Assembly (NCBI GenBank): GCA_963722305.1
Contig: CAVRKE010000002.1
Span: forward strand, 379,878 to 443,877
Source of the DNA: Candidatus Levyibacteriota bacterium
Lineage (GTDB): Bacteria; Patescibacteriota; Microgenomatia; Levybacterales; UBA12049
Direction of reading: 5' to 3'
DNA length: 64,000 bases
The notes beneath the pieces were generated by a model. That model searched no databases and was not told the DNA's origin. It worked only from the letters and a program-made list of their open reading frames with translations. Shown here piece by piece: positions 3 to 59,162 of the stretch. How positions within the stretch are numbered: the first letter of the stretch is position 1; each line of letters begins with the position of its first letter. The position numbers and the translations under genes were made by a program.

Positions 3-3000
3 TTTACTAATGAACTCCCTTACGGACAGATTGTTGCCCCAACTGCCATTAACGATTATTTTGTTTTGGGAGGAAGCACGGTCGAAACCGGAACGCTGAC
101 TTTTAACCCGGCAGCCGCCAACTTAACAATTGGCACCAATAATACCGGCAGCGGTGGACAAAACGGTACTTTGACTTTATATTCTGCCGGCAATGCTGTG
201 ACCGATACTTATCTAACCACCAATAATAATGGCGATCTATTAATCCCTACTAATAACGTCGGCATTGGCGCCACTCCGACAGATTTAGACGCGGATAGTA
301 ATCCGTTTAAATTGGAAGTGGCCGGCAGCATTGGCCCCAACCAAAACGGAGTTTATGATTTGGGCTCGCCAACCATGCAATACAGAAATCTCTATTTGAC
401 TGGTCAGACAACCTCCGGCGGAAACATCACTATCGCCAACACCTCCCCATCAATCACGTTTACGGATACCACTCCTTTGGAAAATGAATATGAGATTAAT
501 GTCGACCATTCCCAATTTACGGTTACAAACAATACGACCGGAGCTAATGCTATCACTGTTAACGCCAACGGCAATATTGATCTTGCCGGTGGATCGCTTG
601 CTACAGGGTGCACTATCGATAACGCCACCGGCAATTTGAGTTGCTCAGGCTCCGGCACTTTCGGCAACGGCCTTACCGTTACCACCGGTGCGGTGAATGT
701 AACCGGCACTTCAGGGGCATTAAGTCTTTCCGGACTGGGGGCATCAAGTATTGCCTTAACCGGAGCAAATAACTTACTCATCACTGCCAACAATTTCAAC
801 GCGACTGCAACCGGAATTAACAATACCGCCATTGGCACTGACCTTCAGTCAAGCGGTGCATTTACTACTTTAAGTGCCAGTGGGACGGTAACCCTCTCCA
901 ATCTTCCGTTTAATGGTCCTGTTTACGCAACTGCCGGCGGAGTCTTAACTTCCGAACAATATCTCTCTCCCTCAAGAGGAGGAACCGGGCTTGATGCCTC
1001 AGCTGCTCCCAACGGTTCTTTATTGATTGGTAACGGTACCGGTTATACTCTGGCAACAATCTCCGGAAGCTTAAACCAGGTAAATGTGACCAATGGCGCC
1101 GGAACAATCACCCTTTCCCTCCCCCAGGATATTGCCCTAACCTCTACCCCGACTTTTACGGGAATGAATTTGACAAGTACCAATAACCAACTGGTATTGG
1201 GAAATACCAATGCCGCTAACCATACCTTAACAATTAACTCCCCTTCCCAAACCGCTAACGTCACCGCATTAATTCCTTCGCTGACCAATCCCGGCGGCGA
1301 TACTTTTGTGTTTGCGGAGCAGGCCCAAACTCTGGACAACAAAACCATCGGCTCAAGCGGGTTGGTTTTCTCCGGAGCAACTGCGGATATTAATACCCAG
1401 TCAGGTAAAGACTTAACTGTTTCTACCACCGGACTGGGAACGCAGATTGTTCTTTCTTCGGTAGTTAAACTTGGTACCATTGCTTCTGCCCCAAGTTATC
1501 CAAATACCGCTACCACCCTTTGTCGGGATGATACCAGCGGACAAATTTCCCAATGTCCGGCCAACGCCGCCAACGTTGATTTACAGCAGGCATATAATGC
1601 CGGAAACACTATCACCACCAACAACAATAACAATATTACCTTTAACCTGGCCGGTGGCGAGACAACTTCATTTGTTTTAAACAATTCCGGAACCGCTCCC
1701 GCATTTGTGATTAACGACATGAATGCCGGGTTAGGAACTGTACTGGAAGTTCAATCTGCCACTAATCCAACGTTAACTGTTTTGGAAAACGGTACACTTT
1801 CAACTGTTGGTAATTTAATTACTACCGGCACCGGCTCGATTACTTCCGCAAGCACCCTGACTGCCCAAGCCACCTCAAACCAGCTGGTCTTAGGCACAGG
1901 CAGCGCCACTACTACTTTTAACTCCGCCGCTGCCACCGCTCAAACGGTGAATATCCCCGAACTCTTAACTTCAGATAGTGATACCTTTGCCTTCGTTAAC
2001 GAAGCTCAGACTTTGCTGAACAAAACCATCGGCTCCTCGGGTTTGGTTTTCTCCGGAGCAACTGCGGATATTAATACCCAGTCAGGTAAAGACTTAACTG
2101 TTTCTACCACCGGACTGGGAACGCAGATTGTTCTTTCTTCGGTAGTTAAACTTGGTACCATTGCTTCTGCCCCAAGTTATCCAAATACCGCTACCACCCT
2201 TTGTCGGGATGATACCAGCGGACAAATTTCCCAATGTCCGGCCAACGCCGCCAACGTTGATTTACAGCAGGCATATAATGCCGGAAACACTATCACCACC
2301 AACAACAATAACAATATTGGTTTTACCTTAGCTAATGGTGAATCAACTCAGTTTACTTTAGCCAATGCCGGCAATGCCACTTCCGCTTTTGTCATCAGTG
2401 ATGCTAATGCTGCCCACAACGCTTTGCAAATTTTATCAGGAGCTACCCCGACTTTAACCCTTGGCATCAACGGCGATATCACCACTCCCGGCAATATCAC
2501 CACTAACAGTGGCGGAACTATTACTTCAGCCGGTTTACTAACTGGGTCAAACGGATTAACCGTCACCACCGGTGCAATTAATCTTACCGGCACCTCCGGG
2601 GCATTAAATTTATCCGGCTTGAGTGCATCAAGTATTGCCTTAACCGGAGCGAATAACTTACTCATCACTGCCAATAACTTTAATGTAACTGGAACCGGGA
2701 TTAACAATACAGCTATTGGAGCAACCACTCAATCAAGCGGAGCCTTTACTACTTTAAGTGCCAGTGGGACGGTAACCCTCTCCAATCTTCCGTTTAATGG
2801 TCCTGTCTACGCAACTGCCGGCGGAGTCTTAACTTCCGAACAATACCTGTCTACAACCAGAGGCGGTACCGGACTTGACACTTCCTTGGCCCAAAACGGT
2901 GAACTTTTGATTGGTAACGGTGCCGGTCTTTCCTTAGGATACATCGGGGGAACTTTAAACCAAATTAATGTTGCCAGCACTTCCGGGACAATCACCCTTT

Positions 3001-6000
3001 CCCTCCCCCAGGATATTGCTTTAACCTCTTCCCCGACATTTGCGGGAATGAATTTGACAAATACTGCCAATCAGTTAATGCTTGGTGGAAGTGGAGCTGT
3101 TACAACCATCAGCTCTACCTCTTCTGCAAATCAAACCATCACTATTCCAACACTACTTACTTCCAACATTGACAGTTTTGCTTTCCTCAATGAAGCCCAA
3201 ACTTTAACTAACAAAACCATCGGCTCGACCGGGTTGGTTTTCTCGGGGCCGGACACGAGTGCTGACATCACCACCGTTTCTGACCAAAATTTGACTTTAA
3301 CTCCAAACGGTAGTGGACAAATTGTGCTTGGCAGCGTTGTCCAACTTGCCGCCGATTTGCCATCCGCTCCAACCAGCGCCACTACTCTTTGCCGGGATGA
3401 TGCCGCTCCCCACCAAATCGTCCAGTGCCCCGCTAACGCTATGAATGTAACGCTGCAGGAAGCATATAATGCCGGAAACACTATCACCACCAACAACAAT
3501 AACAATATTGGTTTTACCTTAGCTAATGGTGAATCAACTCAGTTTACTTTAGCCAATGCCGGCAATGCCACTTCCGCTTTTGTCATCAGTGATGCTAATG
3601 CTGCCCACAACGCTTTGCAAATTTTATCAGGAGCTACCCCGACTTTAACCCTTGGCATCAACGGCGATATCACCACCACCGGAGCACTTTCTTCGGGGAA
3701 CATCACTTCTTCGGGAACAATTACTTCCCAAGCGGTTAACAACCAACTGGTCTTGGGCAATGGCAATACCACCACCATTAATGCTATTGCTTCTTCCTCA
3801 TCCTCTTGGACTGCCACTATTCCGGCGCTAACCGGCAACGACACTTTTGTCTTTACCAACCAGGAGCAAACTTTGACCAATAAATCCTTGGTTGACGGCT
3901 CAACTTATTTGGTTAACGAAAACTATCAAACCCGAAGAGTACAGTTTGATTTAAGCGAACTGCAAACAGATGGCGTAACCAGAGTCATTACCGTTCCGGA
4001 TATGAACGGTTCGCTTTGTTTAACCACCGGAAACTGCGCCGGCACCGGTGGTGTAGTTGGCGGAAGCGGAAATGTTAATCGGCTAGCTAAATTTACCGCC
4101 GACGGTTCCACTATTGGTAATTCCAATATTCTGGACGATGGTAGTTTGATAACCGCATTGTCTGGTCTCCAAATGGCAAAATTAGCCGATGCAACCGGTG
4201 GAACACCCTTGGAAAACTCCAATATCTTTACGCTTCAAGGTTCGTACTGGACCGGAGGTGCAGCCGCTAACGCTACTTTCGGCTTACAAAATATTGTTAT
4301 TAATAATTCTCCCCTGTCTTACAAATTATCTTTCCAAAATACTAACGGAACCGAAGTCGCCAGCCTTTCGCAAAACGGAGAGCTGACGCTTTCTTCCTTA
4401 ACCGCTAACGGTCCTGTTTATTCCAACAACGGAACCTTGAACAGTGAACAATATTTGTCTACAGTTAGGGGCGGCACCGGACTTGACACCTCGGAAGCAA
4501 CAAACGGTGAACTTTTGATTGGTAACGGTGCCGGTCTTTCCTTGGGATATTTAACGGGTACTCCCAACCAGATTAGCATCGCCAGTACGGCCGGTGCTAT
4601 CAATTTCTCTTTACCTCAGGACATTGCTCTTACATCTACTCCAACTTTTGCGGCTTTAAGTTTAACCAATTCCGTCAACCAATTGACCCTGGGTACAACC
4701 GGTGCAATCACCACTGTCAATTCCGCTGCCACAGGAAATCAAACAGTCACTATCCCCGCTCTCTTAACGTCTAACTCCGACACTTTTGTTTTTGCCAGCG
4801 AAGCCCAAACTTTACAGAATAAAACCATCGGCTCAAGCGGCTTGGTGTTTTCGGGTTTAGATGCAAACGCCGACATCACCACTGTTTCTAGTCAAAACCT
4901 AACTTTAACACCCAACGGTTCCGGACAAATCGTCCTTTCCAACATCACCCAGTTGGGAAATTTACCAAGCGCACCAATTAGCCCGATTAATCCTCCATCG
5001 ACCCTTTGCCGAAACAATGACAATGGCCAAATTGTCCAATGTTCTGCCAATTCTTTGAATGTTACCCTGCAGCAGGCTTATCAAGCGGGCAACACCATTA
5101 CTACTTCCAATCTGTATCATAATCTGGCATTTAATTTAACCGAAAACACGCAGTTTACTTTAAATAATGCCGGCAGTGCCACTTCCGCTTTTGTGATTAC
5201 CGATAGCAATCCTAACAATAATGCTTTGCAAATTTTATCGGGGACAACCCCAACTTTATCACTTGGTGTCAACGGCAATGTTTCTACCTCCGGCACAATG
5301 ATCTTTACCGGTACAGGCACCAACATTACCACTATCTCCAATCAAAACCTAACTTTAACACCCAACGGTTCCGGAGAAATTGTCCTTTCCAATACTACGC
5401 AGCTCGGTTCTTTACCGTCGGCTCCGATTAGCCCGACTATTCCACCCACCACCTTGTGCCGCAATAACGACAACAGTGAAGTTATCCAATGTCCTGCCAA
5501 TGCTTTGAATGTTACTTTGCAACAGGCTTACAACGCCGGTAATACCATTACTACCAACAGCAATAACAACATTGGTTTTGTTCTGTCTTCCGGCGAAACA
5601 ACTTCGTTTACCTTAGCTAATAACGGAGACTCCACCGGTTTTGCTTTAACTAACGCCGGGCTCGGGACTGCCATGATTATTAATGATACTAACGCAGCTA
5701 CCAACAACGCTTTGGTGGTTGAGTCGGGCGGTGCCCCAACTTTAACTATCAGTGAAAACGGCAGTCTTTCAACCGTTGGTGTACTTACCGCCGGAGCAAC
5801 TGCAAATCAACTGGTTTTAGGAAACGAAACTACGGGTAATCACACTACTACTATCAGCGCCACCCCTCCTACATCCGACATGACCGCCGTTATTCCTGCT
5901 CTAACCAGTGGCATCGGCAGTGATACTTTTGTTTTTGAAAACCAAACTCAAACTTTAACTAACAAAACCATCGGCTCAACCGGCTTGGCCTTTACCGGAC

Positions 6001-9000
6001 CGGACACTAACAATGACATTTATACCATCTCCAACCAAAATTTGAGTTTATCAGCCGGAACAGGACAAATTGTTTTAACCGCAAATGCCGTACAAGTTTC
6101 TGCTCTTTCAGCAGCTGTCGGAGGAACTGTGGTTTGTCAAAACTCCTCTAACCAATTGTCTGTTTGTTCATCGAATGCTTTAAATGTAACTTTGCAACAG
6201 GCTTATGAAGCCGGCAACACCATTACCACTACTGAGGATAGAGGGATTGCCTTTACCTTAGGAACAGGTCTTAACACTTCCTTTAATCTGACTAATAACG
6301 GTACTGCTTCGGCTGCTTTTAATTTAGCTAATAACGGTACAGGAAGTGGCATCTACCTAACTAACGCCAGTACCGGTAATGGGGTTATCATTAACGATAC
6401 TAACTCCCCTACCAATATCGCCCTACAAGTCCAAAGCAATACTACTCCGACACTAACTATTAATGCTAATGGGAATTTAACAACTAGTGGAAATGTTTCT
6501 TCATCCGGAAATATCCTTACTACCGGCACAGGCACAATTACTTCAGCGGGGCTCCTGACTGCTTCTAATGGATTGACACTGACAACCGGAGCGGTGAATA
6601 TTACCGGAACATCAGGAGCACTAGCTCTATCAGGACTTTCGGCCTCAAGTATCGCTTTATCTGCGGGGAATAACTTAACGATTACTGCCGATAACTTTAA
6701 TACCACCTCAACCGGTATTAACTCTACTGCAATTGGTGCAACCACTGCCTCAAGTGGTGCCTTTACCACACTCTCATCCACCGGCAATACTACTTTATCA
6801 TCCACTGCTTTGTCTACCTTTACAGCCGGAAACACCAGCGGACTAACCACCATTAACGGTTCTTTTGTGAATATTAATGCCAATGGTCAAGGCAGTACTT
6901 TATCCTTAGGCCTGGCTGACAATACCCCAAGCGCTTTTGTGCTAACCAATGGCGCAACCGATTACATCAATGTCAACACCAGTAGTATTTCCCCGGCTAT
7001 CTCTTTTGGAGCGGTTAATACTAACTTTAACGGCAATGTTTCGATGCTTGGAACATTGGGTGTTACCGGAGAAACTACTCTTTCTGCAAACCTGGGGGTT
7101 AGTGGCAGTGCTACTGTGGGTGGAACATTAGCAGTAACTGGTAATACTTCCCTTTCGACTGTTAATACCTCTGCCTTGGCCACTCTAAACAGTGCTTCCG
7201 TTACCAATAACGAAACTGTTGGGGGAATCTTAGCTGTTAATGGGAATTTTACTGTTGGTAACAACCAATTTACTGTCGAAGCCTTAACCGGTAATACTTC
7301 TATTGCCGGAACTCTGGGAGTAACCGGTGCCACTACCCTTTCTTCAACTTTAGATGTTTTGGGACTTTCTACCTTTAATGGCGGGGCACTAATTCCAACC
7401 GGACAAGCCTTTAATGCCTCAGGGTCTGCCACCTTCACACCGGGGACTAATAACAGTGTCAGTATTAATACCGATTACTCCAATGGTTCTTACCTGACCA
7501 TCAACGGTATCGGTACTGCAGTTGGTAATGCCATTTGTTTGGATTCCTCAAACAGAGTAGTTAGTTGTAACGGTGCACCTTTTGGACTGCAGGCAGCCTA
7601 CAATACCGGCAACACCATTACCACTACTGAGGATAGAGGGATTGCCTTTACCTTAGGAACAGGTCTTAACACTTCCTTTAATCTGACTAATAACGGTACT
7701 GCTTCGGCTGCTTTTAATTTAGCTAATAACGGTACAGGAAGTGGCATCTACCTAACTAACGCCAGTACCGGTAATGGGGTTATCATTAACGATACTAACT
7801 CCCCTACCAATATCGCCCTACAAGTCCAAAGCAATACTACTCCGACACTAACTATTAATGCTAATGGGAATTTAACAACTAGTGGAAATGTTTCTTCATC
7901 CGGAAATATCCTTACTACCGGCACAGGCACAATTACTTCAGCGGGGCTCCTGACTGCTTCTAATGGATTGACACTGACAACCGGAGCGGTGAATATTACC
8001 GGAACATCAGGAGCACTAGCTCTATCAGGACTTTCGGCCTCAAGTATCGCTTTATCTGCGGGGAATAACTTAACGATTACTGCCGATAACTTTAATACCA
8101 CCTCAACCGGTATTAACTCTACTGCAATTGGTGCAACCACTGCCTCAAGTGGTGCCTTTACCACACTCTCATCCACCGGCAATACTACTTTATCATCCAC
8201 TGCTTTGTCTACCTTTACAGCCGGAAACACCAGCGGACTAACCACCATTAACGGTTCTTTTGTGAATATTAATGCCAATGGTCAAGGCAGTACTTTATCC
8301 TTAGGCCTGGCTGACAATACCCCAAGCGCTTTTGTGCTAACCAATGGCGCAACCGATTACATCAATGTCAACACCAGTAGTATTTCCCCGGCTATCTCTT
8401 TTGGAGCGGTTAATACTAACTTTAACGGCAATGTTTCGATGCTTGGAACATTGGGTGTTACCGGAGAAACTACTCTTTCTGCAAACCTGGGGGTTAGTGG
8501 CAGTGCTACTGTGGGTGGAACATTAGCAGTAACTGGTAATACTTCCCTTTCGACTGTTAATACCTCTGCCTTGGCCACTCTAAACAGTGCTTCCGTTACC
8601 AATAACGAAACTGTTGGGGGAATCTTAGCTGTTAATGGGAATTTTACTGTTGGTAACAACCAATTTACTGTCGAAGCCTTAACCGGTAATACTTCTATTG
8701 CCGGAACTCTGGGAGTAACCGGTGCCACTACCCTTTCTTCAACTTTAGATGTTTTGGGACTTTCTACCTTTAATGGCGGGGCACTAATTCCAACCGGACA
8801 AGCCTTTAATGCCTCAGGGTCTGCCACCTTCACACCGGGGACTAATAACAGTGTCAGTATTAATACCGATTACTCCAATGGTTCTTACCTGACCATCAAC
8901 GGTATCGGTACTGCAGTTGGTAATGCCATTTGTTTGGATTCCTCAAACAGAGTAGTTAGTTGTAACGGTGCACCTTTTGGACTGCAGGCAGCCTACAATA

Positions 9001-12000
9001 CCGGCAACACCATTACCACTACTGAGGATAGAGGGATTGCCTTTACCTTAGGAACAGGTCTTAACACTTCCTTTAATCTGACTAATAACGGTACTGCTTC
9101 GGCTGCTTTTAATTTAGCTAATAACGGTACAGGAAGTGGCATCTACCTAACTAACGCCAGTACCGGTAATGGGGTTATCATTAACGATACTAACTCCCCT
9201 ACCAATATCGCCCTACAAGTCCAAAGCAATACTACTCCGACACTAACTATTAATGCTAATGGGAATTTAACAACTAGTGGAAATGTTTCTTCATCCGGAA
9301 ATATCCTTACTACCGGCACAGGCACAATTACTTCAGCGGGGCTCCTGACTGCTTCTAATGGATTGACACTGACAACCGGAGCGGTGAATATTACCGGAAC
9401 ATCAGGAGCACTAGCTCTATCAGGACTTTCGGCCTCAAGTATCGCTTTATCTGCGGGGAATAACTTAACGATTACTGCCGATAACTTTAATACCACCTCA
9501 ACCGGTATTAACTCTACTGCAATTGGTGCAACCACTGCCTCAAGTGGTGCCTTTACCACACTCTCATCCACCGGCAATACTACTTTATCATCCACTGCTT
9601 TGTCTACCTTTACAGCCGGAAACACCAGCGGACTAACCACCATTAACGGTTCTTTTGTGAATATTAATGCCAATGGTCAAGGCAGTACTTTATCCTTAGG
9701 CCTGGCTGACAATACCCCAAGCGCTTTTGTGCTAACCAATGGCGCAACCGATTACATCAATGTCAACACCAGTAGTATTTCCCCGGCTATCTCTTTTGGA
9801 GCGGTTAATACTAACTTTAACGGCAATGTTTCGATGCTTGGAACATTGGGTGTTACCGGAGAAACTACTCTTTCTGCAAACCTGGGGGTTAGTGGCAGTG
9901 CTACTGTGGGTGGAACATTAGCAGTAACTGGTAATACTTCCCTTTCGACTGTTAATACCTCTGCCTTGGCCACTCTAAACAGTGCTTCCGTTACCAATAA
10001 CGAAACTGTTGGGGGAATCTTAGCTGTTAATGGGAATTTTACTGTTGGTAACAACCAATTTACTGTCGAAGCCTTAACCGGTAATACTTCTATTGCCGGA
10101 ACTCTGGGAGTAACCGGTGCCACTACCCTTTCTTCAACTTTAGATGTTTTGGGACTTTCTACCTTTAATGGCGGGGCACTAATTCCAACCGGACAAGCCT
10201 TTAATGCCTCAGGGTCTGCCACCTTCACACCGGGGACTAATAACAGTGTCAGTATTAATACCGATTACTCCAATGGTTCTTACCTGACCATCAACGGTAT
10301 CGGTACTGCAGTTGGTAATGCCATTTGTTTGGATTCCTCAAACAGAGTAGTTAGTTGTAACGGTGCACCTTTTGGACTGCAGGCAGCCTACAATACCGGC
10401 AACACCATTACCACTACTGAGGATAGAGGGATTGCCTTTACCTTAGGAACAGGTCTTAACACTTCCTTTAATCTGACTAATAACGGTACTGCTTCGGCTG
10501 CTTTTAATTTAGCTAATAACGGTACAGGAAGTGGCATCTACCTAACTAACGCCAGTACCGGTAATGGGGTTATCATTAACGATACTAACTCCCCTACCAA
10601 TATCGCCCTACAAGTCCAAAGCAATACTACTCCGACACTAACTATTAATGCTAATGGGAATTTAACAACTAGTGGAAATGTTTCTTCATCCGGAAATATC
10701 CTTACTACCGGCACAGGCACAATTACTTCAGCGGGGCTCCTGACTGCTTCTAATGGATTGACACTGACAACCGGAGCGGTGAATATTACCGGAACATCAG
10801 GAGCACTAGCTCTATCAGGACTTTCGGCCTCAAGTATCGCTTTATCTGCGGGGAATAACTTAACGATTACTGCCGATAACTTTAATACCACCTCAACCGG
10901 TATTAACTCTACTGCAATTGGTGCAACCACTGCCTCAAGTGGTGCCTTTACCACACTCTCATCCACCGGCAATACTACTTTATCATCCACTGCTTTGTCT
11001 ACCTTTACAGCCGGAAACACCAGCGGACTAACCACCATTAACGGTTCTTTTGTGAATATTAATGCCAATGGAACCGGCAATGGTTTGTCATTAGGTATTG
11101 TCGGTAATACTACCAATGCTTTCAATTTGGCAGAAGGAACCAATAATTATCTAAATGTTAATACTACCAGTGGCGCAGAAAATGTTGCTTTCGGTAACGG
11201 CAATACCAACCCTTCCTTCTCCTTTTTGGGCAACGGTAATTTTAATACCGGAACCGGCAGCGCTTACTTAAACGGTAATACCTTTGTTACCGACAGTAAT
11301 ACCTTTAATGTTGGTACCGGCGCGACTTCCTTAGGTGGAACATTAGCGGTTAGCGGTATCACTACCTTAAACTCGAATTTGCAATTATTACCGTATGGCA
11401 CCGGTACCGGTCAAACCAGTGAATTACAACTTTACGATTTGGCAGCTAACGGAAGTTATAATATTTCCTTAAAAGCTCCGGATCAACTAACTTCTAATAC
11501 ATCCTATACCCTTCCTTCTGATGATCAAGCTGCCGCTAACTATGTCTTGACTTATCAAGACCAGGGAATTTTGAAATGGGTAAACGTCAATTTGATTGGC
11601 GGAGATATTACCGCAGTTGGCAATGTACTCCAAGGGGATGCCTTTACCGGCAATGACCTTGGTAACACTTTATGGTTTAACGGACCGGGGGCTTCCGTTA
11701 ACCAATTCACGACCGCGCTGACCGGCTCTTTGGTATCTCAACCGGAAACAATTACTTTACCTGCCAACAGCGGAACAGTGGCGCTTATCCAACCGCGCAT
11801 TGCCCAAACTGCCACAGGCTCTAGTCCTTTAATTTTCTTAAATGATACAGGCACCGCCAATCTGGTACAACTACAAAATAATACCGCCGACGTGTTTGTG
11901 GTAGATAAAGATGGCAACGTCGCAATCAACGGCGGCAATATCACTACCACCCAAAACAGTGCGTCACTATTTAACTCCAATGCCACCCAAATCTCAATCG

Positions 12001-23995: not shown

Positions 23996-25432
23996 CAATA
24001 CCTTCTTTAGATTGAATGGACTAAGTACAGCAATCCTGGTACCCATTTGTTTGGATTCATCCAATAATGTTATTGTCCTGTACCAATCTACCGTTAGTTT
24101 ACAGACTGCTTATCATGGTGGTAATACCATTACTACCACCACCGGCAGAAACATTGACTTTACTCTGGGCAGTGGACTGGCTACTTCCTTTAACTTGACT
24201 AATCAAGGAACTGCCACAGGCTTTAATCTTAACAATACCTCAAGCGGTAATGCTTTAGCTGTTACCTCGGGAGGAATTAATGCTTTAACTATTGATAATA
24301 ACGGGAACTCAACCAGCAGCGGTAACTTTACTACTTCCGGAAATATCGCTACCGCTAATAGCGGTACTATTACCTCCAATGGGTTATTGACAGCTTCAAA
24401 CGGTTTAACGGTTACTACCGGCAATGTGAATATAACGGGAACAGCAGGAGCAATCAGTCTCTCCAGCCTTAATGCCTCCAGTATTGCTTTAAGTGGTACT
24501 AATAATCTAACGATTACTGCCAATAACTTCAATGTCTCGGGAACCGGGATTAATAATACGGCTATTGGTGCAGGTAGTACTCAATCAACTGGTGCCTTTA
24601 CCACTTTATCCTCAAATAACAATACCACCTTGGCATCAGGGGCGGGAGCAACTCTCACTTTGGGTAATACCACCGGGACGGTTACTCTTAACGGTTCTAC
24701 TGTTAGTATTAATAGTAATGGAGCCGGTAACGCTTTATCCTTAGGTATTGCCGGTAATACTGCTTCTGCTTTCAATGTCTCCCAAGGGAGTAATAAATAC
24801 ATTAATGTTAATACCAGTACCGGGACAGAGAATGTCGCTTTTGGTAATACTAGTACCAATCCTTCCTATTCCTTCTTAGGAACAGGACAAACTACCTTTG
24901 GCGGAAATGTTTCTGTTTCGGGGACCTTAGGAGTTACCGGGAATACTTCCCTCTCTACCGTTAATACCTCAGGTCTGGCAACTCTTGATAGTTTACTGAC
25001 TGAAAACTTTGCCACAGTTTCCGGAACACTAACCGTTAATGATCTCACCCAACTTAACTCTACCTTAGGAGTTAGTGGGAATACCTCCTTAGGAGGAACC
25101 CTGGGAGTTACCGGCAATGTTTCGGTTAATACCAATAAATTCACCATTGATGCTTCAACCGGGAATACGGTCATCGGTGGAACATTAACCGTTACCGGGA
25201 ATACCTCCCTTTCCACTCTTAATACTTCGGGACTGGCAACCCTAAACAGTGCCTCTGTTACTAATAATGAGACAGTGGGAGGAGCATTAACAGTGACCGG
25301 TGTTTCTACCTTTAACGGCGGAGCAACCGTTGCTTCAGGACAAAACTTCCTGGCCCAGGGTCAATCAACCTTTACACCCTCTGCCAGTAGTGGTATTACC
25401 GTTAATACTACCAATGCCAATACCTTCTTTAG
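22690..25432 (+). repeat. Two tandem copies of a 1422-bp (474-aa) unit. Copy 1 (22690-24010) carries 3 single-base insertions; copy 2 (24114-25432) is in frame.
   Basis: Antisense ORF pairs 22779/24203 (offset 1424), 23158/24581 and 23443/24866 (offset 1423) are identical. These offsets fit a clean 1422-bp unit plus the insertions remaining downstream in copy 1. Confidence 0.85.
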
Positions 25433-31400: not shown

Positions 31401-34400
31401 GATAAATCAACTGCCAATATCTTTAATACCACAGCAACCACAGTTAATCTGGGTGGGGCTGCCACTACTATCTCCTTGGGGGCAACCAGTGGTACTACTA
31501 CTATTAATAGTGGCACCCTTTCTTTGCCTAATGCCACAGCGGTTACTGCCGGCAGTGCTCTACTGACTATTGATTCTGCTTCGATTGGTGGAGGGTATGG
31601 TTCAACCGGGGTAACTATCAGTAACACCGGCAATATCCAGGCAGACGGCACTTTAACCATTGGCAGCACTTCCGACCTTAAAGGACAAGTAACAGCAGAA
31701 GCCGGAGTTAAAGTTAACGGGACAGGTTCCACTGCGGATATAACCACGGATAAATCAACTGCCAATATCTTTAATACCACAGCAACCACAGTTAATCTGG
31801 GTGGGGCTGCCACTACTATCTCCTTGGGGGCAACCAGTGGTACTACTACTATTAATAATAACCTGGCGGTAAGTCTGGTTGATAATAGTGCTTATGCCTT
31901 CAGTGTCTATGAAGGAGCCAATAGCTATCTTAATGTCAGCACCGTGGATAGCAGTGAGAATGTCGCTTTTGGCAATACTAGTACCAATCCTTCCTATTCC
32001 TTCTTAGGTAGTGGAGCTACTACCTTTACCGGAAATATTAATGCCAACTCCGGAGTGATTGCTACTAGCCAATCATCAGCCAGCATTTTTAACTCTACTG
32101 CTACTACTGTAAACCTTGGTGGTGCGGCAACCAATATTAATATCGGGGCAACCAGTGGTACAGCGACTATTAAAAACGCCATTGTTTCCTTGCCTAATGC
32201 TACACAAGTTAATGCCAGTAATGCCGCCGGTAACTTTAACTCTCTAACCACCGGTGGAGGTTATACATCAACCGGAGCAACTATTGGCAGCAGTGGTAAT
32301 ATTCAGGCCAATGGAACCTTAACTATTAACGGTACTTCCCTATTAAGCGGAGCGGTTACTACTAATGATACTCTAACAGTTAACGGTACAACAAATGCTA
32401 ATATTGTTTCTTCTAATTCCACTGTTAACCTCTTTAACTCCGGCTCCTCCTCTTTGTATATCGGTGGAGGTGCATCCACCATTTCTTTGGGGGCAACCAC
32501 TGGGACAACCACGGTGAATACCGATTTAACCCTTGGCTCCGGTAAGAAATTAACCACCACCGGTCCGGTTTCTTTCAATCCGGGAAGTAGTAATAACGTT
32601 GCAATAACTACCGGTGCCAGTTCGTTCCTGGTGATTAGCGGCTTAAGCCAAACTAGTGGATCGGCAATTTGTGTTGATTCCTCAAACCGTGTCGTAAAGT
32701 GCGATTCCTCAACTCAAGGCTTGCAAGCCGCTTATAACAACGGTAATACGATTACTACTGCCAGCTCTAAAGATATTGCCTTTAATCTGGCGAATAATTC
32801 CAACTTCTCGGTAACTACCGCTGCTGATACTACCGGTTATTCCATATTTAGGGAAGGTCCTAATTCTATTACTACAGTTCCAAACCAGTTAATCTTGGTT
32901 GATAATGCCGGGACTATCCCAGTACCAGAAGGAATTGTTATTGGTAACTCCGGTGGTGGTGGCATTATCACCGGCGTTGATGTTTCTGCTGCAACTACCA
33001 CCGGTATCGCTTTAGGTGGAACAGGAATCTCGGGAACCAACTTCAACGTTAATGGTTCAACCGGAGATGTTACCACCAGCGGCACGATTAATGCTAACGG
33101 CGGAACTATTGCTACCACTTCTACCGGAACTGTAAATCTTTTCAATACCAACGCCACCGGCCTTAATATCGGCGGAGCGGCTACTGGAGTAAGTATCGGA
33201 GCAACTAGTGGTACAGCGACTATTAAAAACGCTATTATTTCTCTACCTAATGCTACACAAGTTAATGCCAGTAATGCCAGCGGCAACTTCAACTCCCTAA
33301 CCACCGGTAGCGGTTACACTTCGGGGACCGGAACAACTATTACTTCAACCGGCGTAATCCAAACCAAAAGCAACCTAACTGTTGACGGAAGTTCTACTCT
33401 AACCGGAGATGTTACCACCAGCGGCACTATTAATGCTAACGGCGGAACTCTTGCTACCTCGGTTACCGGAACAGCTAGTATTTTCAATACCAACGCAACC
33501 GGACTTAATATTGGCGGAGCAGCAACCACTATTTCTTTAGGGGCGACATCCGGAACAACCACCATTAACAATAACTTAACTCTTGGTTCCGGTAAAACCT
33601 TAACCACCACCGGTCCTGTTTCTTTCAATCCGGGAAGCGGCAATAACGTTGCAATTACTACCGGTGCCAGCTCCTTCTTGACTATTAGCGGCTTAAGCCA
33701 AAATGCCGGCAGCTCGCTTTGCTTAGACGGTTCCAACCATGTCGGCACTTGTAACAGCGCTGCCCAAAGTTTGCAGGCCGCCTATAACAACGGCAATACT
33801 ATCACCACAACCGACGCTAGAGATATTGCTTTCACTCTGGCTCCTCATGTTTCTACTACCGATTCTAACTTTACGGTAACCACCGCTAACGGTTCAACCG
33901 GAGGTACCCAATTCTTAAGAGCCAGCGGAGGAAGCACTAATAATCCTTCACAATTAGTCTTAATTCAAAATCAGGCAACAGGAGCTTTACCGATTGGTCT
34001 AAAGGTTGGAGGAGTTGTCACTACCGCTGTTGACCTTTCGGATTCAAATATCGTCAATGCCTTAAACCTTGGCGGCGGAAATGTTTTAGCCAGTAAATTC
34101 TCTATCACCGGCTCAACCGGTAATATCTCAACCAGTGGCACCTTAACAGTTGATGGCGGTTCGATTGCTACCACCATCAGCAGCTCCACTATTAACTTGT
34201 TTAATACTAATGCTACCACTGTCAATCTTGGTGGAGCGGCAACCACTTTGGCGATGGGCGCAACCAGCGGCACAGCCAGTATCAACAATACGACCATTAA
34301 CTTTAATAATGCTACTGCCATCAACGCCGCCAGCGCAGTGACAGGAGTTAGTTCCCTAACCACCGGCGGAGGTTATGGCTCAACCGGAGCAACTATTGAT

Positions 34401-37400
34401 AATAGCGGTAATATCCAGGCCAAAGGAACCTTAACTATTGATAGCACTTCCCAATTAAGCGGAGCAGTTACTACCAACGGTACTCTCACCGTTAACGGTG
34501 CATCATCAGCTAATATTGTTTCTTCTAATTCCACTGTTAACCTCTTTAACTCCGGCTCCTCCTCTTTGTATATCGGTGGAGGTGCATCCACCATTTCTTT
34601 GGGGGCAACCACTGGGACAACCACGGTGAATACCGATTTAACCCTTGGCTCCGGTAAGAAATTAACCACCACCGGTCCGGTTTCTTTCAATCCGGGAAGT
34701 AGTAATAATGTTGCGATTACCGGCGGTGCTAATTCATATATTACTGTTTCCGGAATGCAGACAACCACCGGTCAATCTCCCACACTTTGTATTGATTCTT
34801 CAAATCGTATTGTTAAATGCGATGCTTCGGCCAACTTAAGCTTGCAATCCGCCTACAACAACGGTAATTCAATTACTACTACCAGCTCTAAAGATATTGT
34901 CTTTAATCTGGCGAATAATTCCAACTTCTCGGTAACTACTGCCGCCGGAGCAACCGGTAATTCTATGTTTAGTGAGGCAGCCAATGCAGGTTCGACTGTT
35001 CCAACTCAATTAATCTTGGTTGATAACGCCGGAGTCTTAGGTGTGGACAATGCAATTCCGACAGCCATTAAAGTTACCAGTACTGGCGGAGCCGGGTTTA
35101 CCACCGGCATTGATGTCTCTGCCGCTTTAACTACCGGTATTGCTTTAGGAACAAGCGGAATTTCCGGAACTTACTTTAATGTTGATACAGCAGGTAATAC
35201 TAGTATGAACGGCACCTTAACGGTTAACGGTGGAACGATTGGCACTACTGTCAGCCTTTCCACTATTAACTTGTTTAATACCAATGCTACCACTGTTAAT
35301 CTTGGTGGAGCAGCAACCAATTTGGCGATGGGCGCAACCAGCGGCACAGCCACAATTAATAATGCTATTGTTAACTTCCCACATGCTACTACCATTGGAG
35401 CAAGCGGTGCTGCCGGTAACTTTAAGTCTTTAACCACCGGCGGAGGTTATGGCTCAACCGGAGCAACTATTGATAATAGCGGTAATATCCAGGCCAAAGG
35501 AACCTTAACTATTGATAGCACTTCCCAATTAAGCGGAGCAGTTACTACCAACGGTACTCTCACCGTTAACGGTGCATCATCAGCTAATATTGTTTCTTCT
35601 AATTCCACTGTTAACCTCTTTAACTCCGGCTCCTCCTCTTTGTATATCGGTGGAGGTGCATCCACCATTTCTTTGGGGGCAACCACTGGGACAACCACGG
35701 TGAATACCGATTTAACCCTTGGCTCCGGTAAGAAATTAACCACCACCGGTCCGGTTTCTTTCAATCCGGGAAGTAGTAATAATGTTGCGATTACTACCAG
35801 CGGTAATTCTTTCCTGTCTGTTTCCGGACTGCAGGCCAGCACCGGAACACCGATTTGTGTTGACGGTTCAAACCACGTTGTCACCTGTACTGCATCAGCA
35901 ACGCTGCAATCCGCCTACAACAACGGTAATTCAATTACTACTACCAGCTCTAAAGATATTGTCTTTAATCTGGCGAATAATTCCAACTTCTCGGTAACTA
36001 CTGCCGCCGGAGCAACCGGTAATTCTATGTTTAGTGAGGCAGCCAATGCAGGTTCGACTGTTCCAACTCAATTAATCTTGGTTGATAACGCCGGAGTCTT
36101 AGGTGTGGACAATGCAATTCCGACAGCCATTAAAGTTACCAGTACTGGCGGAGCCGGGTTTACCACCGGCATTGATGTCTCTGCCGCTTTAACTACCGGT
36201 ATTGCTTTAGGAACAAGCGGAATTTCCGGAACTTACTTTAATGTTGATACAGCAGGTAATACTAGTATGAACGGCACCTTAACGGTTAACGGTGGAACGA
36301 TTGGCACTACTGTCAGCCTTTCCACTATTAACTTGTTTAATACCAATGCTACCACTGTTAATCTTGGTGGAGCAGCAACCAATTTGGCGATGGGCGCAAC
36401 CAGCGGCACAGCCACAATTAATAATGCTATTGTTAACTTCCCACATGCTACTACCATTGGAGCAAGCGGTGCTGCCGGTAACTTTAAGTCTTTAACCACC
36501 GGCGGAGGTTATGGCTCAACCGGAGCAACTATTGATAATAGCGGTAATATCCAGGCCAAAGGAACCTTAACTATTGATAGCACTTCCCAATTAAGCGGAG
36601 CAGTTACTACCAACGGTACTCTCACCGTTAATGGTACGCCCAATGCTAATATTGTTTCTTCTAATTCCACTGTTAACCTCTTTAACTCCGGCTCCTCCTC
36701 TTTGTATATCGGTGGAGGTGCATCCACCATTTCTTTGGGGGCAACCACTGGGACAACCACGGTGAATAATAATTTAACTATAACCGGCACCTTAACCGGT
36801 AATGGACAAACCAATCTAACCCCGGCAAATAATAATAACGTTGCAATAACTCTTGCGGGAACATCTAATTTCTCAATTACCGGATTAAGCGGAGCCGCCG
36901 GCACATCACTTTGTCTTGACTCGTCTAACCGTGTGGCAACTTGCAACGCCGGCTCATCTGCTGCAACACTGCAATCAGCTTATAACACTGGCAACACTAT
37001 TACTACCTCTAGCTCAAAAGATATTACCTTTAGTCTTGCCGGTTCAAGCTCTAATTTCTCGGTCATCACTCCTGCCAGCTCAACCGCATATTCCGCTTTC
37101 ACCAGAGCCAGCGGTACAGGCTCGGTCGATCCTAGCCAATTGGTCTTAATCCAAAACCAACAAACCAGAACCTTGCCGATTGGCTTAAAAGTTGCCGGAG
37201 TTTCCAGTGGAGTGGTTACTACCGCGATTGACCTTTCAGATGCCAACATCACTAATGCTTTAGCCCTTGGAGCCGGCAACATTACTGCTACCCACTTCTC
37301 TCTTACCGGCTCGAATGGAAATCTTTCAACCGACGGAACTTTAGCGGTTAACGGTGGCACTATCAGCACTAACCAATCAACCTTTAATTTGGTTAACGAT

Positions 37401-40400
37401 GTAACTGCTACTACGGTTAATTTTGCCGAAGGCGCAACTAACCTTACCATGGGCGCAACCAGCGGTACTGCCAGCATTAGAAATGGCGTTCTTTCTTTGC
37501 CAAACGCCACCGCTGTTAATGCCAGCAGCGCCACCGGTAACTTTTATTCCTTGACCACCGGCGGCGGTTATAGCTCAACCGGAGCAACTATTGATAATAG
37601 CGGTAATATCCAGGCCAAAGGAACATTAACTATTGATAGCACTTCCCAATTAACCGGAACCGTTACCGCCGGAGGAGGACTGGTCGTTAACGGCACCGGT
37701 TTAACCGGCGATATTACCACCGCTAAAGCCACCGGCACATTGTTTAATACTTCAACCGCTACTGTCAATATTGGAGGGGCCGCCACTACAATTAGCATCG
37801 GAGCAACTACCGGAACAACCACCATCAACAACGCCTTAACAATATCCGGAACTTTGACGGCCAACGGCGCCGCCAATATCGGTAATGGTAGTAGTACCAT
37901 TGCTTTAAGCGGCACTACCCTAACAACTACTACAACCAGCACAAATACAATCAGCATCCCCGACAATCTTGCCAGTGCCTTTGACATTAAACAAGGCAGT
38001 AATGATTACTTTAATATCACTACTACTAACGGCAGCAGATCAATAAGTTTTGGCAATGCTACCACTAATCCTGCCTACAACTTTAATGGCAGTGGCACGA
38101 TGACACTTACGGGTAGCTTGGTAGTTAACGGCGGCAATGTTTCCGCCACTTCCGGTACGTCTGTTAACTTATTCAACACCAGCCAAACTACTTCGCTAAG
38201 TATCGGCGGGAACGCAACAACTATTGCGCTTGGAGCGGCAACCGGAACTACCACCGTTAGCAATAATTTGACGGTTTCCGGCGCCACCACCACCCTTGCT
38301 TCAACACTGGTTAGTCTGACCGGCACCTCCCCTGTCGTTGACACAACCGGCTCAAATACTCTGAGCATTAATGCTACACACAATAATCCGGTTACTTTTG
38401 GCTCGGGTACATTTACTGTTAATTCCAGCACTATTAATTTGGCGGGTACCTCCCCTGTTGCAATTGCTGCCACCACCACCAATGCCGCCTTGGCCATTGA
38501 CAGTAACGGCAGCGGTGCTCTAAATCTTCAGGGCACTAATACCACCGGCGACGTCAACATTGCCGGCGGCTATAATAACACCGGCTGCACTATTTATAAT
38601 GCCAGTGGAAATATTTCCTGCTCCGGCTCATTTACTACCAATGCCAGTACCGGCACCGTCCAGTTTGGCTACTTTAACAGAAACTTTACCACCGGAGTAA
38701 TTTCCAATGCTACTGCCGGTGACACATTATCGATTTCCTCAACCAGTAACGGTACTTCGGCCTTAACTATTGCCAATACTGCCTTGACCGGAAACGGTAT
38801 TGCCGGATTTACCAATAATTTGACTATTACCGGAACCGGTGCGGGAAATAAATACTACGGAGAGAATACAACGGTTACCAACAACCAAACCGGTGCTGCC
38901 GACACGGCTTATGGAGAAAATATTTCCTTCGTCGATGCCGGAGCTTTGGCCAATACAGTTTATGGCTTATACGTTGACGCAAGCACGGCAAACGCCAATG
39001 ATACACAATACGCCGCGGCCTTTATGAACGGCAATGTCGGAATTGGCACCAATACTCCCACCGCCAAACTTGGTATCACGGGAGCAACCGGTGACACCGG
39101 CCTTACTCTAGCCGGAATCACCAGCGGAACCGAAATTAACTTATCATCGTCGATTACTTCCGGAACCGGCATGACTATAAATGCCGCCGGTTTGACCAGT
39201 GGAAACGGTATTATTCTAAACGGCACTTCTCCAACCAATCCGGCTGCCTTTAGCGGAAATATGATTAGTATTGCACCGACCCGTACGATATCCAGTGGCA
39301 CTTCCTCGATAAACGATACCGGAAATTATTTAAGCATTGCGCGAAGCAATAGTGTTTCGGTTGCCAATACCTTTACCATTAGCGGTGATTTAGTCAAGTT
39401 ATCATCCGGTTGTACTGTCAGTAATGGTGGGGTTTGTGCAGATACGTCTCATCTGCTTTCTCTTTATCAAACCCTTGCCTCCGCTTCCGGCAGCTTATTG
39501 TATATTAATAATGTTAGCAAAGGCTTGGCGCTTGACATCAACTCCATGGGATATACAAACCCGGTTGCCTCCATTTCGGGGACAACTTCCTTTGCCGCTT
39601 TAGTTGCCAACAATAACGGTGTTGGGGATTTGTTTACCGCTTCCGCCTCCGGTTGGACCAGGTTTAGTATAGATAACAGCGGAAATGTTAATACTACCGG
39701 AAATCTAACATTAGCGGGAACAACCGGGCTAACCCTTTCCGGAAACGGAGCAGACATTAACTTTACAGGCGCTGCCAGTAATATTGATACACTCACTACC
39801 GCCAACAACAATAACTTTGCGATATTGCCAAACGGGACCGGTTTTGTGGGATTAAACACAACGTCCCCTGTGGCTTCGTTTGATGTCAGAGGAAATTCCG
39901 GAACACTCGCCGCTGCTTCAGTCTCGGCTAAAACCAGCTTTGCCGCTTTGGTTGCCAATAATAACGGTGTTGGGGATTTGTTCACCGCTTCCGCCTCCGG
40001 TTGGACCAGGTTTGTCATTAAAAATAATGGTAATGTCGGCATTGGAACCAGTACTCCATCTACTACGGTTGGTGGAAACGTTCTGGAAATCAATTCTACT
40101 GTAGCAGGTAATTCCGGTCTTAAATTCACCCAGCTCAACAGTAACTCAGCTGTGTCATCAAACTATTCACAGTTGCTAGGACTCGATTCATCAGGCGATG
40201 TCGGTCTTTCCAGCGCCGGTATTTCTCTTACTTCACCGGCTCTTGCCTACTGGGATGCTACCCATGATCCGACCGGCGCAAACTATTCTTATCCGCAAGC
40301 TTCAGTACTAAGCCTTGGTAGTACAAATTTTACTCCGACCTGGACCCTTGCCAACGGCGAACAGTTGACTAATGCGAATACAAACGAAACAGGCGATATC

Positions 40401-47538: not shown

Positions 47539-47568
47539 TTTAAGTAGTATAATAATCTAAGACCAAAT

Positions 47569-49209: not shown

Positions 49210-49224
49210 GTCCCCTGTTTTGTT

Positions 49225-51537: not shown

Positions 51538-51566
51538 AAAACAGATAATTCCCTACCGGATTTAAA

Positions 51567-51595: not shown

Positions 51596-51627
51596 GACAG
51601 TCAATAAGCAATTTAGGTATTTATCCC

Positions 51628-51656: not shown

Positions 51657-51663
51657 TTAATTT

Positions 51664-59153: not shown

Positions 59154-59162
59154 GTGATGAAA

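Follow-up and report, generated by a model that had tools for sequence, protein, structure and literature searches.

The window analysed here, a stretch of 64,000 nucleotides (nt) from a Candidatus Levyibacteriota bacterium (assembly GCA_963722305.1, contig CAVRKE010000002.1, positions 379,878 to 443,877 of the forward strand), carries one giant gene on its + strand (positions 3..45002), of which about 15,000 codons lie within the window. The encoded protein is modular, and a motif made of a Cys pair followed by LQxAYxxGNTITT recurs along it. We propose, with moderate confidence, that this motif structurally joins each module to the next in a giant, fibre-like protein displayed outside the cell on the surface of Patescibacteria (the candidate phyla radiation, CPR). 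A Cys hairpin, closed by a probable intrachain disulfide, would there be joined to a knob led by LQxAY. Each module would end in a β-hairpin with one Cys on each strand, and outside the cell the two Cys would most likely form an intrachain disulfide, which would seal the loop and fix in place the end of the shaft segment before it. Past a linker of 5-9 residues, the LQxAY helix and the GNTITT strand would open the knob of the next module, which may be of either of two types (K1 or K2), and the knob would be followed by a variable number of shaft repeats of a kind also found in phage fibre-like proteins.

Occurrence of the motif in the giant gene

The giant gene is annotated as three open reading frames (ORFs), ORF A (66-22643, + strand, 7525 amino acids (aa)), ORF B (23877-45002, + strand, 7041 aa), and between them ORF C (23108-24010, + strand, 300 aa). 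When the regular expression C.{9,11}C.{4,12}Q.AY..GN[ST]I[TL]T was applied to ORF A and ORF B, it matched 28 times (17 in ORF A and 11 in ORF B), and extension of the scan to all three forward frames added two more, one intact (22624-22713) and one degenerate (24048-24137), giving a total of 30 copies between nt 1521 and 37007, the internal spacing of which is fixed. An earlier reading of the window from its sequence only (the sequence-only reading) had counted about 30 occurrences and quoted four of them as examples, all of which are present. It had placed them in one protein at 66-38500; the motif is indeed found in that interval, but the interval is split among the three ORFs, which are in fact one frameshifted gene. 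The knob that follows the motif is of the K1 type behind 15 of the 30 copies and of the K2 type behind the other 15. The copies are as follows, with the tandem units and frameshifts that are mentioned being described further below.

1521..1619, + strand: copy 1, CRDDTSGQISQCPANAANVDLQQAYNAGNTITT, C-x10-C, then K2
2202..2300, + strand: copy 2, C-x10-C, K2
3390..3491, + strand: copy 3, C-x11-C, K2
5007..5105, + strand: copy 4, C-x10-C, K2
5457..5555, + strand: copy 5, C-x10-C, K2
6135..6230, + strand: copy 6, C-x9-C, K2
7536..7625, + strand: copy 7, C-x9-C, K2, within the 1395-bp perfect tandem unit
8931..9020, + strand: copy 8, identical to copy 7
10326..10415, + strand: copy 9, identical to copy 7
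12861..12950, + strand: copy 10, C-x9-C, GNSILT variant, K1
13917..14009, + strand: copy 11, C-x10-C, K1
14970..15062, + strand: copy 12, C-x10-C, K1
16023..16115, + strand: copy 13, C-x10-C, K1
17097..17186, + strand: copy 14, C-x9-C, K1
18201..18290, + strand: copy 15, C-x9-C, K1
19293..19382, + strand: copy 16, C-x9-C, K1
21480..21569, + strand: copy 17, C-x9-C, K1
22624..22713, + strand: copy 18, C-x9-C, K2, intact, in the frame entered after frameshift 1
24048..24137, + strand: copy 19, degenerate CLDSSNNVIVLYQSTVSLQTAYHGGNTITT, second Cys destroyed by local indels just downstream of frameshift 3, K2
25470..25559, + strand: copy 20, C-x9-C, K2, within the 777-bp perfect tandem unit
26247..26336, + strand: copy 21, identical to copy 20
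27024..27113, + strand: copy 22, identical to copy 20
27807..27896, + strand: copy 23, C-x9-C, K2
29415..29504, + strand: copy 24, C-x9-C, K1
30552..30641, + strand: copy 25, C-x9-C, K1
32670..32759, + strand: copy 26, C-x9-C, K1
33720..33809, + strand: copy 27, C-x9-C, K1, the copy modelled by AlphaFold2
34788..34880, + strand: copy 28, C-x9-C, K1
35856..35942, + strand: copy 29, C-x9-C, K1
36912..37007, + strand: copy 30, the last, C-x9-C, K1

The protein is rich in small and polar residues (T 17%, N 12%, G 12-13%, S 11-12%, A 10%), charged residues are very scarce, and Cys accounts for 0.5% of the residues. The 38 Cys of ORF A form 19 close pairs, the motif accounting for 17 of them, and the 23 Cys of ORF B up to residue 4870 consist of 22 in the 11 motif pairs and one in the degenerate copy. 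The view that Cys is otherwise almost absent from the protein is therefore accurate for the repeat region, where nearly all Cys belong to motif pairs. With 2000 shuffles of the residues, the number of C-x9-11-C pairs had a mean of 0.86 and a maximum of 6, compared with 29 observed, although this comparison overstates the independence of the copies because they are paralogues, duplicates of one another. Conservation across organisms is the stronger evidence.

Among the 16 distinct copies, each invariant residue is encoded by 2-5 synonymous codons (for example, five for Leu, TGT and TGC for Cys, and CAA and CAG for Gln). Since synonymous codons are mixed in this way, the motif is neither a conserved patch of DNA nor the product of recent gene conversion alone, and purifying selection acts on it at the protein level.

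Conservation in related proteins

When one module was used in a word-indexed search, 72 proteins were found, and the best of them (about 25) have the motif with both Cys; four of the relatives are named 'beta strand repeat-containing protein, partial' by NCBI. Genomes were then scanned, one per species, with the pattern AYx[GNT]GN[TS]ITT and a 46-column alignment of the motif (A2), which resulted in 62 loci belonging, by their titles, to Levyibacteriota, Roizmanbacteria, Daviesbacteria, Kerfeldbacteria, Uhrbacteria, Veblenbacteria, Saccharibacteria, and 'Patescibacteria group'. Nearly all of the loci are in metagenome-assembled genomes (MAGs) of Patescibacteria. Furthermore, when a profile of the hairpin plus knob was compared by HMMER with 1.84 billion representative proteins, 343 proteins were found at E<=1e-3, 168 at <=1e-10, and 60 at <=1e-30. 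The family is therefore rare but well populated. In these searches, the combination of hairpin and knob is restricted to giant proteins of the Patescibacteria type and is found almost only in that group.

The Cys pair is kept in these relatives. In the 62 loci, 275 of 283 non-redundant LQxAY..GN starts have a Cys pair upstream (C-x9-C in 199 cases and C-x10-C in 61). When the loci were pooled with about 200 database proteins, exactly two Cys were found in the 34 residues upstream of 414 out of 421 non-redundant LQxAY starts, and the exceptions had no Cys (5 cases) or one (2 cases). The peptide with both Cys thus recurs in 62 loci from independent assemblies and in hundreds of proteins at 35-60% identity. 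Homologues differ in the number of residues that separate the two Cys (5, 8, 9, 10, 12-17, and about 20), and the pair is kept throughout. It had been suggested that conservation of the Cys be checked in homologues and that a known Pfam or InterPro family, or Cys positions that vary, would speak against the motif; the Cys are conserved, with a loop whose length itself varies, and no family in Pfam, NCBIfam, or PHROGs matched.

Many of the best-matching MAGs, which come from third parties (L003-L014, L017, L020, and others, in CAZ… and OZ246394.1 records) are titled 'uncultured Gammaproteobacteria', including single contigs of 1.3 and 1.6 Mb that carry a giant gene of the Patescibacteria type, and short contigs with the giant gene have been binned as Acidobacteriota or Burkholderiales. 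These records look mislabelled or mis-binned, and the Gammaproteobacteria label in particular is doubtful.

The searches of family libraries gave no name to the motif. At E<=0.1, the whole protein had only sub-threshold chance matches in Pfam, and a 176-aa segment of hairpin plus knob matched no Pfam family at E<=10. The module region had no match in NCBIfam or PHROGs, and 34 homologues compared with Pfam had no family in common. Neither a module profile (A1; no match at E<=1) nor a profile of six C-termini matched any PDB sequence. In the literature on giant proteins, Patescibacteria, surface proteins, and tail fibres, no description of the motif was found, although the coverage of that literature was incomplete and absence is unproven. 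Therefore, the word 'novel' used in the sequence-only reading is correct in so far as Pfam, NCBIfam, PHROGs, and PDB hold no match, but hundreds of homologues, some of them named by NCBI, are already in public databases, and the family is better called uncurated.

Architecture of modules and junctions

From alignments of eleven modules of about 350 residues and of twelve segments of hairpin plus knob (A3), the order of elements is a Cys hairpin, a linker of 5-9 residues, LQxAYxxGNTITT, a knob of about 135 residues, shaft repeats, and a lead-in unit. The consensus of the hairpin is (L/I/V)C(L/I/V/R)(D/N)xSNxVxxC, and among the 28 invariant columns of A3 are both Cys, N8, L20, Q21, A23, Y24, G27, and N28. 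The K1 knob, about 135 residues long, consists of nine short segments with alternating hydrophobic residues (RDIxFTLA, SNFxVTTA, xxFxRA, QLVLIxN, GLKI, AIDLSD, ALxLG, FSxxG, and GTLxVNGGSITTT), and the K2 knob begins with T(S/Q)F(N/T)L(T/A)N, the 'TSFNLTN' type. The landmarks NF.VTTA, QLVLI.N, and GLKI, which had been taken as common to the modules, do follow 15 of the 30 copies, but the other 15 are followed by the 'TSFNLTN' type. The shaft repeat FNTNATTLNIGGAAT…GATSGTxTINN occurs 39 times between 12432 and 38172, the element GGGYGSTG.TI.N.GNIQA.G.LT.D (more generally GGGYGxTGxTIxNxGNIQAxGxLTxD) occurs 20 times between shaft repeats, and a unit 'TF.PGS.NNV.I.T…L.ISGL' (TFxPGxxNNVxIxT…LxIxGL…G) leads into the next Cys hairpin. 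The distance from motif to motif varies from 150 to 845 residues because the number of inserted shaft repeats differs. With two knob types, variable shaft repeats, and such a range of module lengths, the idea of one conserved fold per module had to be abandoned. Examples of these elements are as follows.

33771..34175, + strand: K1 knob, LQAAYNNGNTITT…RDIAFTLA…SNFTVTTA…QLVLIQN…GLKV…AVDLSD…ALNLG…FSITG…GTLTVDGGSIATT
34188..34790, + strand: shaft with two repeats, '..FNTNATTLNIGGAAT..LGATSGT.TINN..'
12999, 14058, 15111, 16164, 17235, 18339, 19431, 21618, 29553, 30699, 32799, 33864, 34920, 35982, 37050, + strand: the 15 SNF.V.T landmarks of K1 knobs

The motif is the seam of two elements, because the hairpin occurs without LQxAY, and LQxAY occurs without a hairpin of the type found in the window. 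The Cys hairpin is the C-terminal end of the preceding module, and LQxAY…GNTITT the N-terminal start of the next. The clearest case is one relative (P0015), a complete chromosomal protein of 620 residues with ribosomal protein genes nearby, which carries a classical signal peptide and a single full module. A second hairpin comes next and ends at C512; straight behind this hairpin, in place of LQxAY, a Peptidase_S74 domain begins at S517 (SDRRLKQNI; 55.3 bits, compared with a cut-off of 22). In another relative (P0021), a coiled coil stands behind a hairpin of the window type. Conversely, in some relatives LQxAY comes after collagen-like GxT repeats, CxxC, C-x17-C, or sequence free of Cys, and distant members have other loops ahead of it, such as TLPDASGTxCLTSGNC (C-x5-C), GQCLKQSGTGNQLIWDAC (C-x14-16-C), GCSDGQVLKW…W.C, FRCFENSAWSDC, and C-x20-C. 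The CLTSGNC type of loop, which replaces the C-x9-C hairpin ahead of LQxAY in distant homologues, has a counterpart in the window itself, where Cys loops that are not followed by LQxAY are found at these positions.

609..644 and 38586-38621, + strand: another Cys hairpin, GCTIDNATGNLSC, C-x10-C, of the form GCT(I)(D/Y)NA(T/S)GN(L/I)SC
4017..4037, + strand: short Cys loop CLTTGNC, C-x5-C, after 'ITVPDMNGSL'

The claim that the motif marks module junctions is thus borne out by the module alignment and by the relatives. The claim that it begins every module needs revision: there is a conserved domain behind it, but the hairpin ends the preceding unit, and it is LQxAY alone that starts the next.

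Structure models and the nature of the Cys pair

Two AlphaFold2 models were made, one of 421 residues with a 33-row alignment (model 1, mean predicted local distance difference test (pLDDT) 80.3, predicted template modelling score (pTM) 0.52) and one of 176 residues with 40 diverse rows (model 2, pLDDT 85.1, pTM 0.65), in which the pLDDT was above 90 over most of the knob. In both models a β-hairpin spans the Cys pair (strands 60-62 and 68-70 with Cys61 and Cys71 in model 1, and strands 19-22 and 28-31 with Cys21 and Cys31 in model 2), and a short helix lies over (S)LQAAY. Modelling of one module, which the sequence-only reading had recommended, thus gave a hairpin and a helix where the motif is, but the knob had nearly no strands as assigned by DSSP, in spite of its confident pLDDT. 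In a Foldseek search, model 1 had no match and model 2 (pLDDT 85) had a lone chance match of 20 columns (E=9), and for both models the near absence of DSSP secondary structure cripples such a search. Mean-field direct coupling analysis (DCA) of 349 knob sequences (effective number, Meff, 260) gave couplings within the knob between residues about 13 and 35-52 apart, a pattern that suits a single-chain solenoid and an intertwined trimer alike. The top DCA couplings of the hairpin were rejected as contacts and are regarded as gap and alignment artefacts of mixed hairpin types.

A disulfide in the hairpin is most likely, in view of the conservation of the two Cys and their loss or replacement as a pair in homologues. 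An intrachain bond is favoured because the Cys ends of the loop are fixed while its length varies from 5 to 20 residues, which is the signature of a loop closed by a disulfide. The joint may then serve as a rigid staple resistant to proteases or to force, and the protein as a whole may be a long fibre, perhaps a trimer, through which other cells are contacted.

Several observations weigh against this proposal of a joint with an intrachain disulfide. In the simplest DSSP register (19-31, 20-30, 21-29, and 22-28), the two Cys are diagonal to each other, two residues off, in both models, and the hairpin is the region of lowest pLDDT (62-86). The models thus place both Cys on one hairpin but do not prove a bond, and the notion of a disulfide-stapled loop is plausible. 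In addition, the homologue sets were gathered with probes that contain the motif and are biased to hairpin and LQxAY occurring together. The extracellular location of the protein in the window is read from the export features of its homologues, its own N-terminus lying outside the window. Many Patescibacteria are found in anoxic water, where extracellular disulfides are less certain. A role in the attachment of episymbionts is suggested solely by the size and location of the protein and the lifestyle of the group.

Alternatively, the Cys may be bonded between chains. In a homotrimeric fibre, the first Cys of one chain could bond to the second Cys of its neighbour, resulting in three disulfides round the axis at each junction, an arrangement that would resemble the disulfide rings of fibrinogen and the C-terminal cystine knot of collagen III. 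We regard this as unlikely, although it has several observations in its favour. Both models put the Cys on the same face of the hairpin and out of register by two, which is awkward for an intrachain bond, and the Cys are strictly paired. In the relative mentioned above (P0015), the Peptidase_S74 chaperone stands four residues past the hairpin, and trimeric phage fibres are known to have this domain; the protein in the window has a C-terminal coiled coil and a weak match to K1-lyase_C. Furthermore, a confident chain without intrachain β-ladders, as modelled for the knob, might be one strand of an intertwined trimer. However, the range of loop lengths, from 5 to about 20 residues, suits intrachain closure and is ill fitted to a fixed geometry between chains, and the protein in the window is without an S74 domain.

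It is much less probable that the paired thiolates, possibly six per trimer, hold a metal ion at or close to the axis of the fibre in every junction, as ions are bound along the fibre proteins of phage T4. Such a site would be consistent with the invariance and strict pairing of the Cys and with the conserved Asp/Asn and Ser/Asn in the loop, including the invariant N8, and it would suit the anoxic habitat of many Patescibacteria better than disulfides would. However, there is no His and no additional Cys, so that two thiolates per chain would be a poor site alone; the loop residues other than the Cys and one Asn vary, as does the loop length, widely; and no known metal-binding family was matched.

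A reactive or processing site, either a Cys-Gln thioester or an autoproteolytic cut of the precursor into modules, is more improbable still. The (L/I)C(L/I)(D/N) and LQxAY strings loosely recall the Cys and Gln motifs of thioester adhesins, the Cys and Gln are invariant and lie within 18 residues, and one relative has the self-cleaving S74 chaperone directly past the hairpin. However, there are always two Cys rather than a single reactive one, LQxAY is also found without an upstream Cys, and the motif contains no catalytic His or Ser-Lys dyad and no conserved His, Glu, or Lys. Moreover, no thioester-domain, S74, or other self-processing family was detected in the protein in the window, and a Cys pair before the cleavage site was found in 0 of 47 phage S74 fibres. 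For the same count (0 of 47 phage proteins), the Cys hairpin was rejected as a general feature ahead of S74 cleavage sites.

Finally, a feature of the DNA itself (a patch of homology for recombination) or a repeat multiplied by the assembler, with no constraint on the peptide, would fit the perfectly identical tandem units (1395 bp x4 and 777 bp x4), the three frameshifts inside such a block, and the assembly-dependent copy number, but it is largely refuted by the synonymous differences at every invariant residue among the 16 distinct copies, by the presence of both Cys in the 62 independently assembled loci and hundreds of proteins, and by the unbroken frames in the short-read assemblies of relatives.

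Reading frame and tandem repeats of the giant gene

The frame of the giant gene is already open at position 3 of the window, without an in-frame stop at 3-65, and therefore the start of the protein lies upstream of the window. The same text is found in ORF C as where ORF A ends and where ORF B begins, and the three ORFs are one frameshifted gene because coding could be traced through successive frames by tblastn with an intact repeat unit, from 22218-22628 (frame 3) to 22633-23115 (frame 1), to 23120-24049 (frame 2), and to 24057 onward (frame 3). The frameshifts are as follows.

22610..22635, + strand: frameshift 1, one T too many (TATTGT in place of the expected TATGT), by which GVALCLDSSNNVTQC becomes GVALLSGFIQ-stop
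23113..23122, + strand: frameshift 2, frame 1 to frame 2, with tblastn segments ending at 23115 and resuming at 23120
24045..24060, + strand: frameshift 3, frame 2 to frame 3, from the tblastn segments

All three frameshifts fall within 1.5 kb (22610-24060), in a zone of repeats that are 97-100% identical. All three could be either sequencing or assembly errors in the repeats or real mutations. In other assemblies, the frames of related genes are unbroken over entire 20-kb loci, and short-read assemblies of relatives have unbroken frames of more than 6,700 codons. The closest related contig (L002), the name of which suggests a long-read assembly, is fragmented in the same way as the window. 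The gene also contains tandem DNA units of 1395 bp (x4, 100% identity, 6211-11790), 777 bp (x4, 100% identity, 25083-28190), 1053 bp (x3, 86-88% identity, 13789-16950), and 348 bp (x2.5, 96% identity, 31005-31857), and it is likely that the copy number in the long tandem blocks is unstable or assembly-dependent.

Cellular location and the C-terminal region

The protein in the window is probably extracellular, as can be read from the N-termini of its homologues. Among 34 homologues that begin with Met, 27 contain, within their first 200 residues, a strongly hydrophobic segment that is signal-peptide-like or transmembrane. For instance, in a complete Roizmanbacteria homologue of 4437 aa, there is a cytoplasmic segment at the N-terminus and a single transmembrane helix, the motif occurs once, and the sequence ends in KFNWLIIN. 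In several homologues (L022 3650-4000, P0093, and P0200), the N-terminus is a cytoplasmic domain of the helix-turn-helix (HTH, MerR) or phage-integrase-SAM-like kind, a single transmembrane helix comes next, and the giant extracellular fibre lies behind it; this odd arrangement might couple the fibre to DNA binding or signalling.

Behind the last modules, the protein ends in a region of a different character, the parts of which are as follows.

38586..45002, + strand: non-repetitive C-terminal region of about 2,140 aa, with other Cys pairs, a weak concanavalin-like match, and a conserved 'DLAEDYP…GDVLSV…GRVPVKV' block
~44140-44430, + strand: coiled coil of about 90 aa within the C-terminal region
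44781-44999, + strand: last ~70 aa, ending in KFNWWIVN, resembling K1-lyase_C

The last 72 residues matched positions 2-70 of the 70 positions of the K1-lyase_C profile (PF24146) with E=3.7e-5 and 24.5 bits, below the cut-off of 27, and a weak match to the same profile is also on record for the homologous contig (L002). This profile represents the C-terminus of tailspikes of the K1 capsule lyase type, here the C-terminal domain of a Klebsiella phage K1 capsule lyase. Over its last 700 aa, the protein is 40-48% identical to giant-gene ends in five of the related loci (L003, L004, L009, L016, and L045), and the ending (K/R/T)F(N/D)W.I.N is also present in L022 (16630-16960), L051, L059, P0159, P0175, and the Roizmanbacteria protein. 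One of these end regions (L004) has weak matches to phage cement and minor-capsid families. The Patescibacteria family of giant anchored fibres can be defined operationally by the hairpin, LQxAY, the knob, and the conserved C-terminal region ending in (K/R/T)F(N/D)W.I.N, and the protein in the window has all of these.

Comparison with known systems

By sequence, the nearest relatives are anonymous proteins in databases. Of the characterised kinds of protein, phage tail fibres and tailspikes with a C-terminal S74 chaperone of the endosialidase type come closest. In the protein in the window, the shaft repeat 'DLAVNGGDITTT…TA.VFNTNATTLNVGGAATT..LGA.TGT.TINNA' is 44-64% identical, over 50-200 residues, to proteins with Mtd_N, Pectate_lyase_3, or Peptidase_S74 domains, which serve as building blocks in the fibres and spikes of phages. 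It is this repeat that the weaker database matches have in common, and one relative (P0015) ends in a bona fide S74 domain. The coiled coil, and possibly the weakly K1-lyase_C-like end, are further likenesses. In contrast, the protein in the window has no S74, Mtd_N, or pectate-lyase domain, is encoded on a chromosome among housekeeping genes, and is at least 15,000 residues long, and its relatives are anchored in the membrane at the N-terminus. Pfam scans of the whole protein found no Peptidase_S74, which is present in two relatives (P0015 and P0027), and because it lacks this domain, with its SDxRxK dyad motif, the protein in the window is not an S74 fibre.

A phage origin of the motif was considered and rejected, since 2.9 million viral contigs gave only two weak loci, both without the Cys pair. 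These two IMG/VR loci (L065 7500-10613 and L066 7119-8945) contain an 'LQ.AY..G.T…DI.FTL' domain start. The PHROG matches of their neighbours are limited to 'head decoration/structural', and the N-terminal part of the L065 protein itself matches a 'head decoration' PHROG.

Giant proteins of other uncultivated bacteria resemble the protein in the window in their extreme length, their β-rich low-complexity repeats, their predicted location at the surface, and the fragmentation of their genes by assembly. A preprint on giant genes of Omnitrophota describes an antiparallel β-helix and other domains and mentions CPR in passing; its text does not contain the word 'cysteine', and 'disulfide' occurs once, in a cited title (bioRxiv 10.1101/2023.11.21.568195). 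The name 'beta strand repeat-containing protein', which NCBI gives to the closest matches of the window protein, is a generic label, and no NCBIfam model matches the module.

Among better-known surface fibres, the adhesin stalks of Gram-positive bacteria consist of repeated β-rich domains, each with one intramolecular covalent bond (isopeptide, ester, or thioester). They are comparable in being long surface fibres with a covalent staple made by an invariant pair of residues in each repeat, but the staple in the window would be a disulfide, at the junction and not inside a domain, and there is no relation by sequence or Pfam and no sortase signal in the window. Pfam families of thioester, isopeptide, or ester adhesins had no match in the protein. 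The 'necks' of trimeric autotransporter adhesins are short conserved connectors where a β-rich head meets the stalk, and they resemble the motif as recurring connectors in a modular fibre around which modules are shuffled. The connector in the window differs in having a Cys pair, and there is no sequence similarity and no YadA-type anchor; nor are Patescibacteria known to possess an outer membrane. The shaft repeat also scored weakly against the Bactofilin profile (17.7 bits, where Pfam requires 27.9), in a stretch outside the motif and the knob, and one remote match is labelled as bactofilin family by JGI; bactofilins are small cytoplasmic polymers.

Significance

Patescibacteria make up a large share of bacterial diversity. 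The cultivated members all live attached to other cells, and little is known of their means of attachment beyond type IV pili (PMC12206443). This work provides a giant, membrane-anchored, lineage-restricted fibre family with a signature that can be searched for (the Cys-closed hairpin, LQxAY, and the 135-residue knob). A curated domain model could be built from it and would make it easier for gene callers and annotators to recognise and stitch together genes that are now seen as anonymous fragments. In addition, the junction is small enough for expression and structure determination, and a structure would tell whether the fold is new and whether the bonds are within or between chains. The result is a new domain family, well supported, whose structural role is inferred, and no general principle is changed by it. 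A more far-reaching picture, which we put forward as speculation and consider rather doubtful, is that the hairpin plus knob is a fold without a solved relative, in a micrometre-scale homotrimeric fibre assembled from parts derived from phage fibres, cross-linked by disulfides within or between chains and anchored by an N-terminal helix, that reaches and holds host cells and in which the Cys junctions would be regularly spaced clamps against mechanical load.

Genomic neighbourhood

The giant gene is chromosomal, and its neighbours encode phosphoenolpyruvate (PEP) synthase, archaeal-type PEP carboxylase, an aminotransferase, a Wzy_C membrane protein with tetratricopeptide repeats (TPR), and a GT4 glycosyltransferase. 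The PEP synthase beside the giant gene shares 70-79% identity with proteins whose names assign them to Patescibacteria, Saccharimonadales, and Levybacteria, and no synteny was found between the genes downstream in the window and the related loci. The G+C content is 44-48% in the giant gene (window positions 1-45000) and 36-41% in the rest (46000-64000). Protein O-oligosaccharyltransferases carry a Wzy_C domain, and a fibre as rich in Thr, Ser, and Asn as this one might be glycosylated. The Wzy_C and GT4 genes lie just downstream of the giant gene, and the other features of this part of the window include remains of insertion sequences (IS).

45079-47538: PEP synthase, close to the PEP carboxylase
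49225-51537, - strand: Wzy_C (O-antigen-ligase-like) membrane protein with TPR
51664-52128: IS1595-type zinc-ribbon fragment
53623-55131: archaeal-type PEP carboxylase (PEPcase_2)
55562-56818, - strand: GT4 glycosyltransferase
57575-57647: tRNA-Asn (GTT)
59154-60101: IS110-family transposase
60520-61032, - strand: small SLT/transglycosylase-like ORF
61485-62195: HTH/rve integrase fragment
63179-63949: DUF1295 membrane protein

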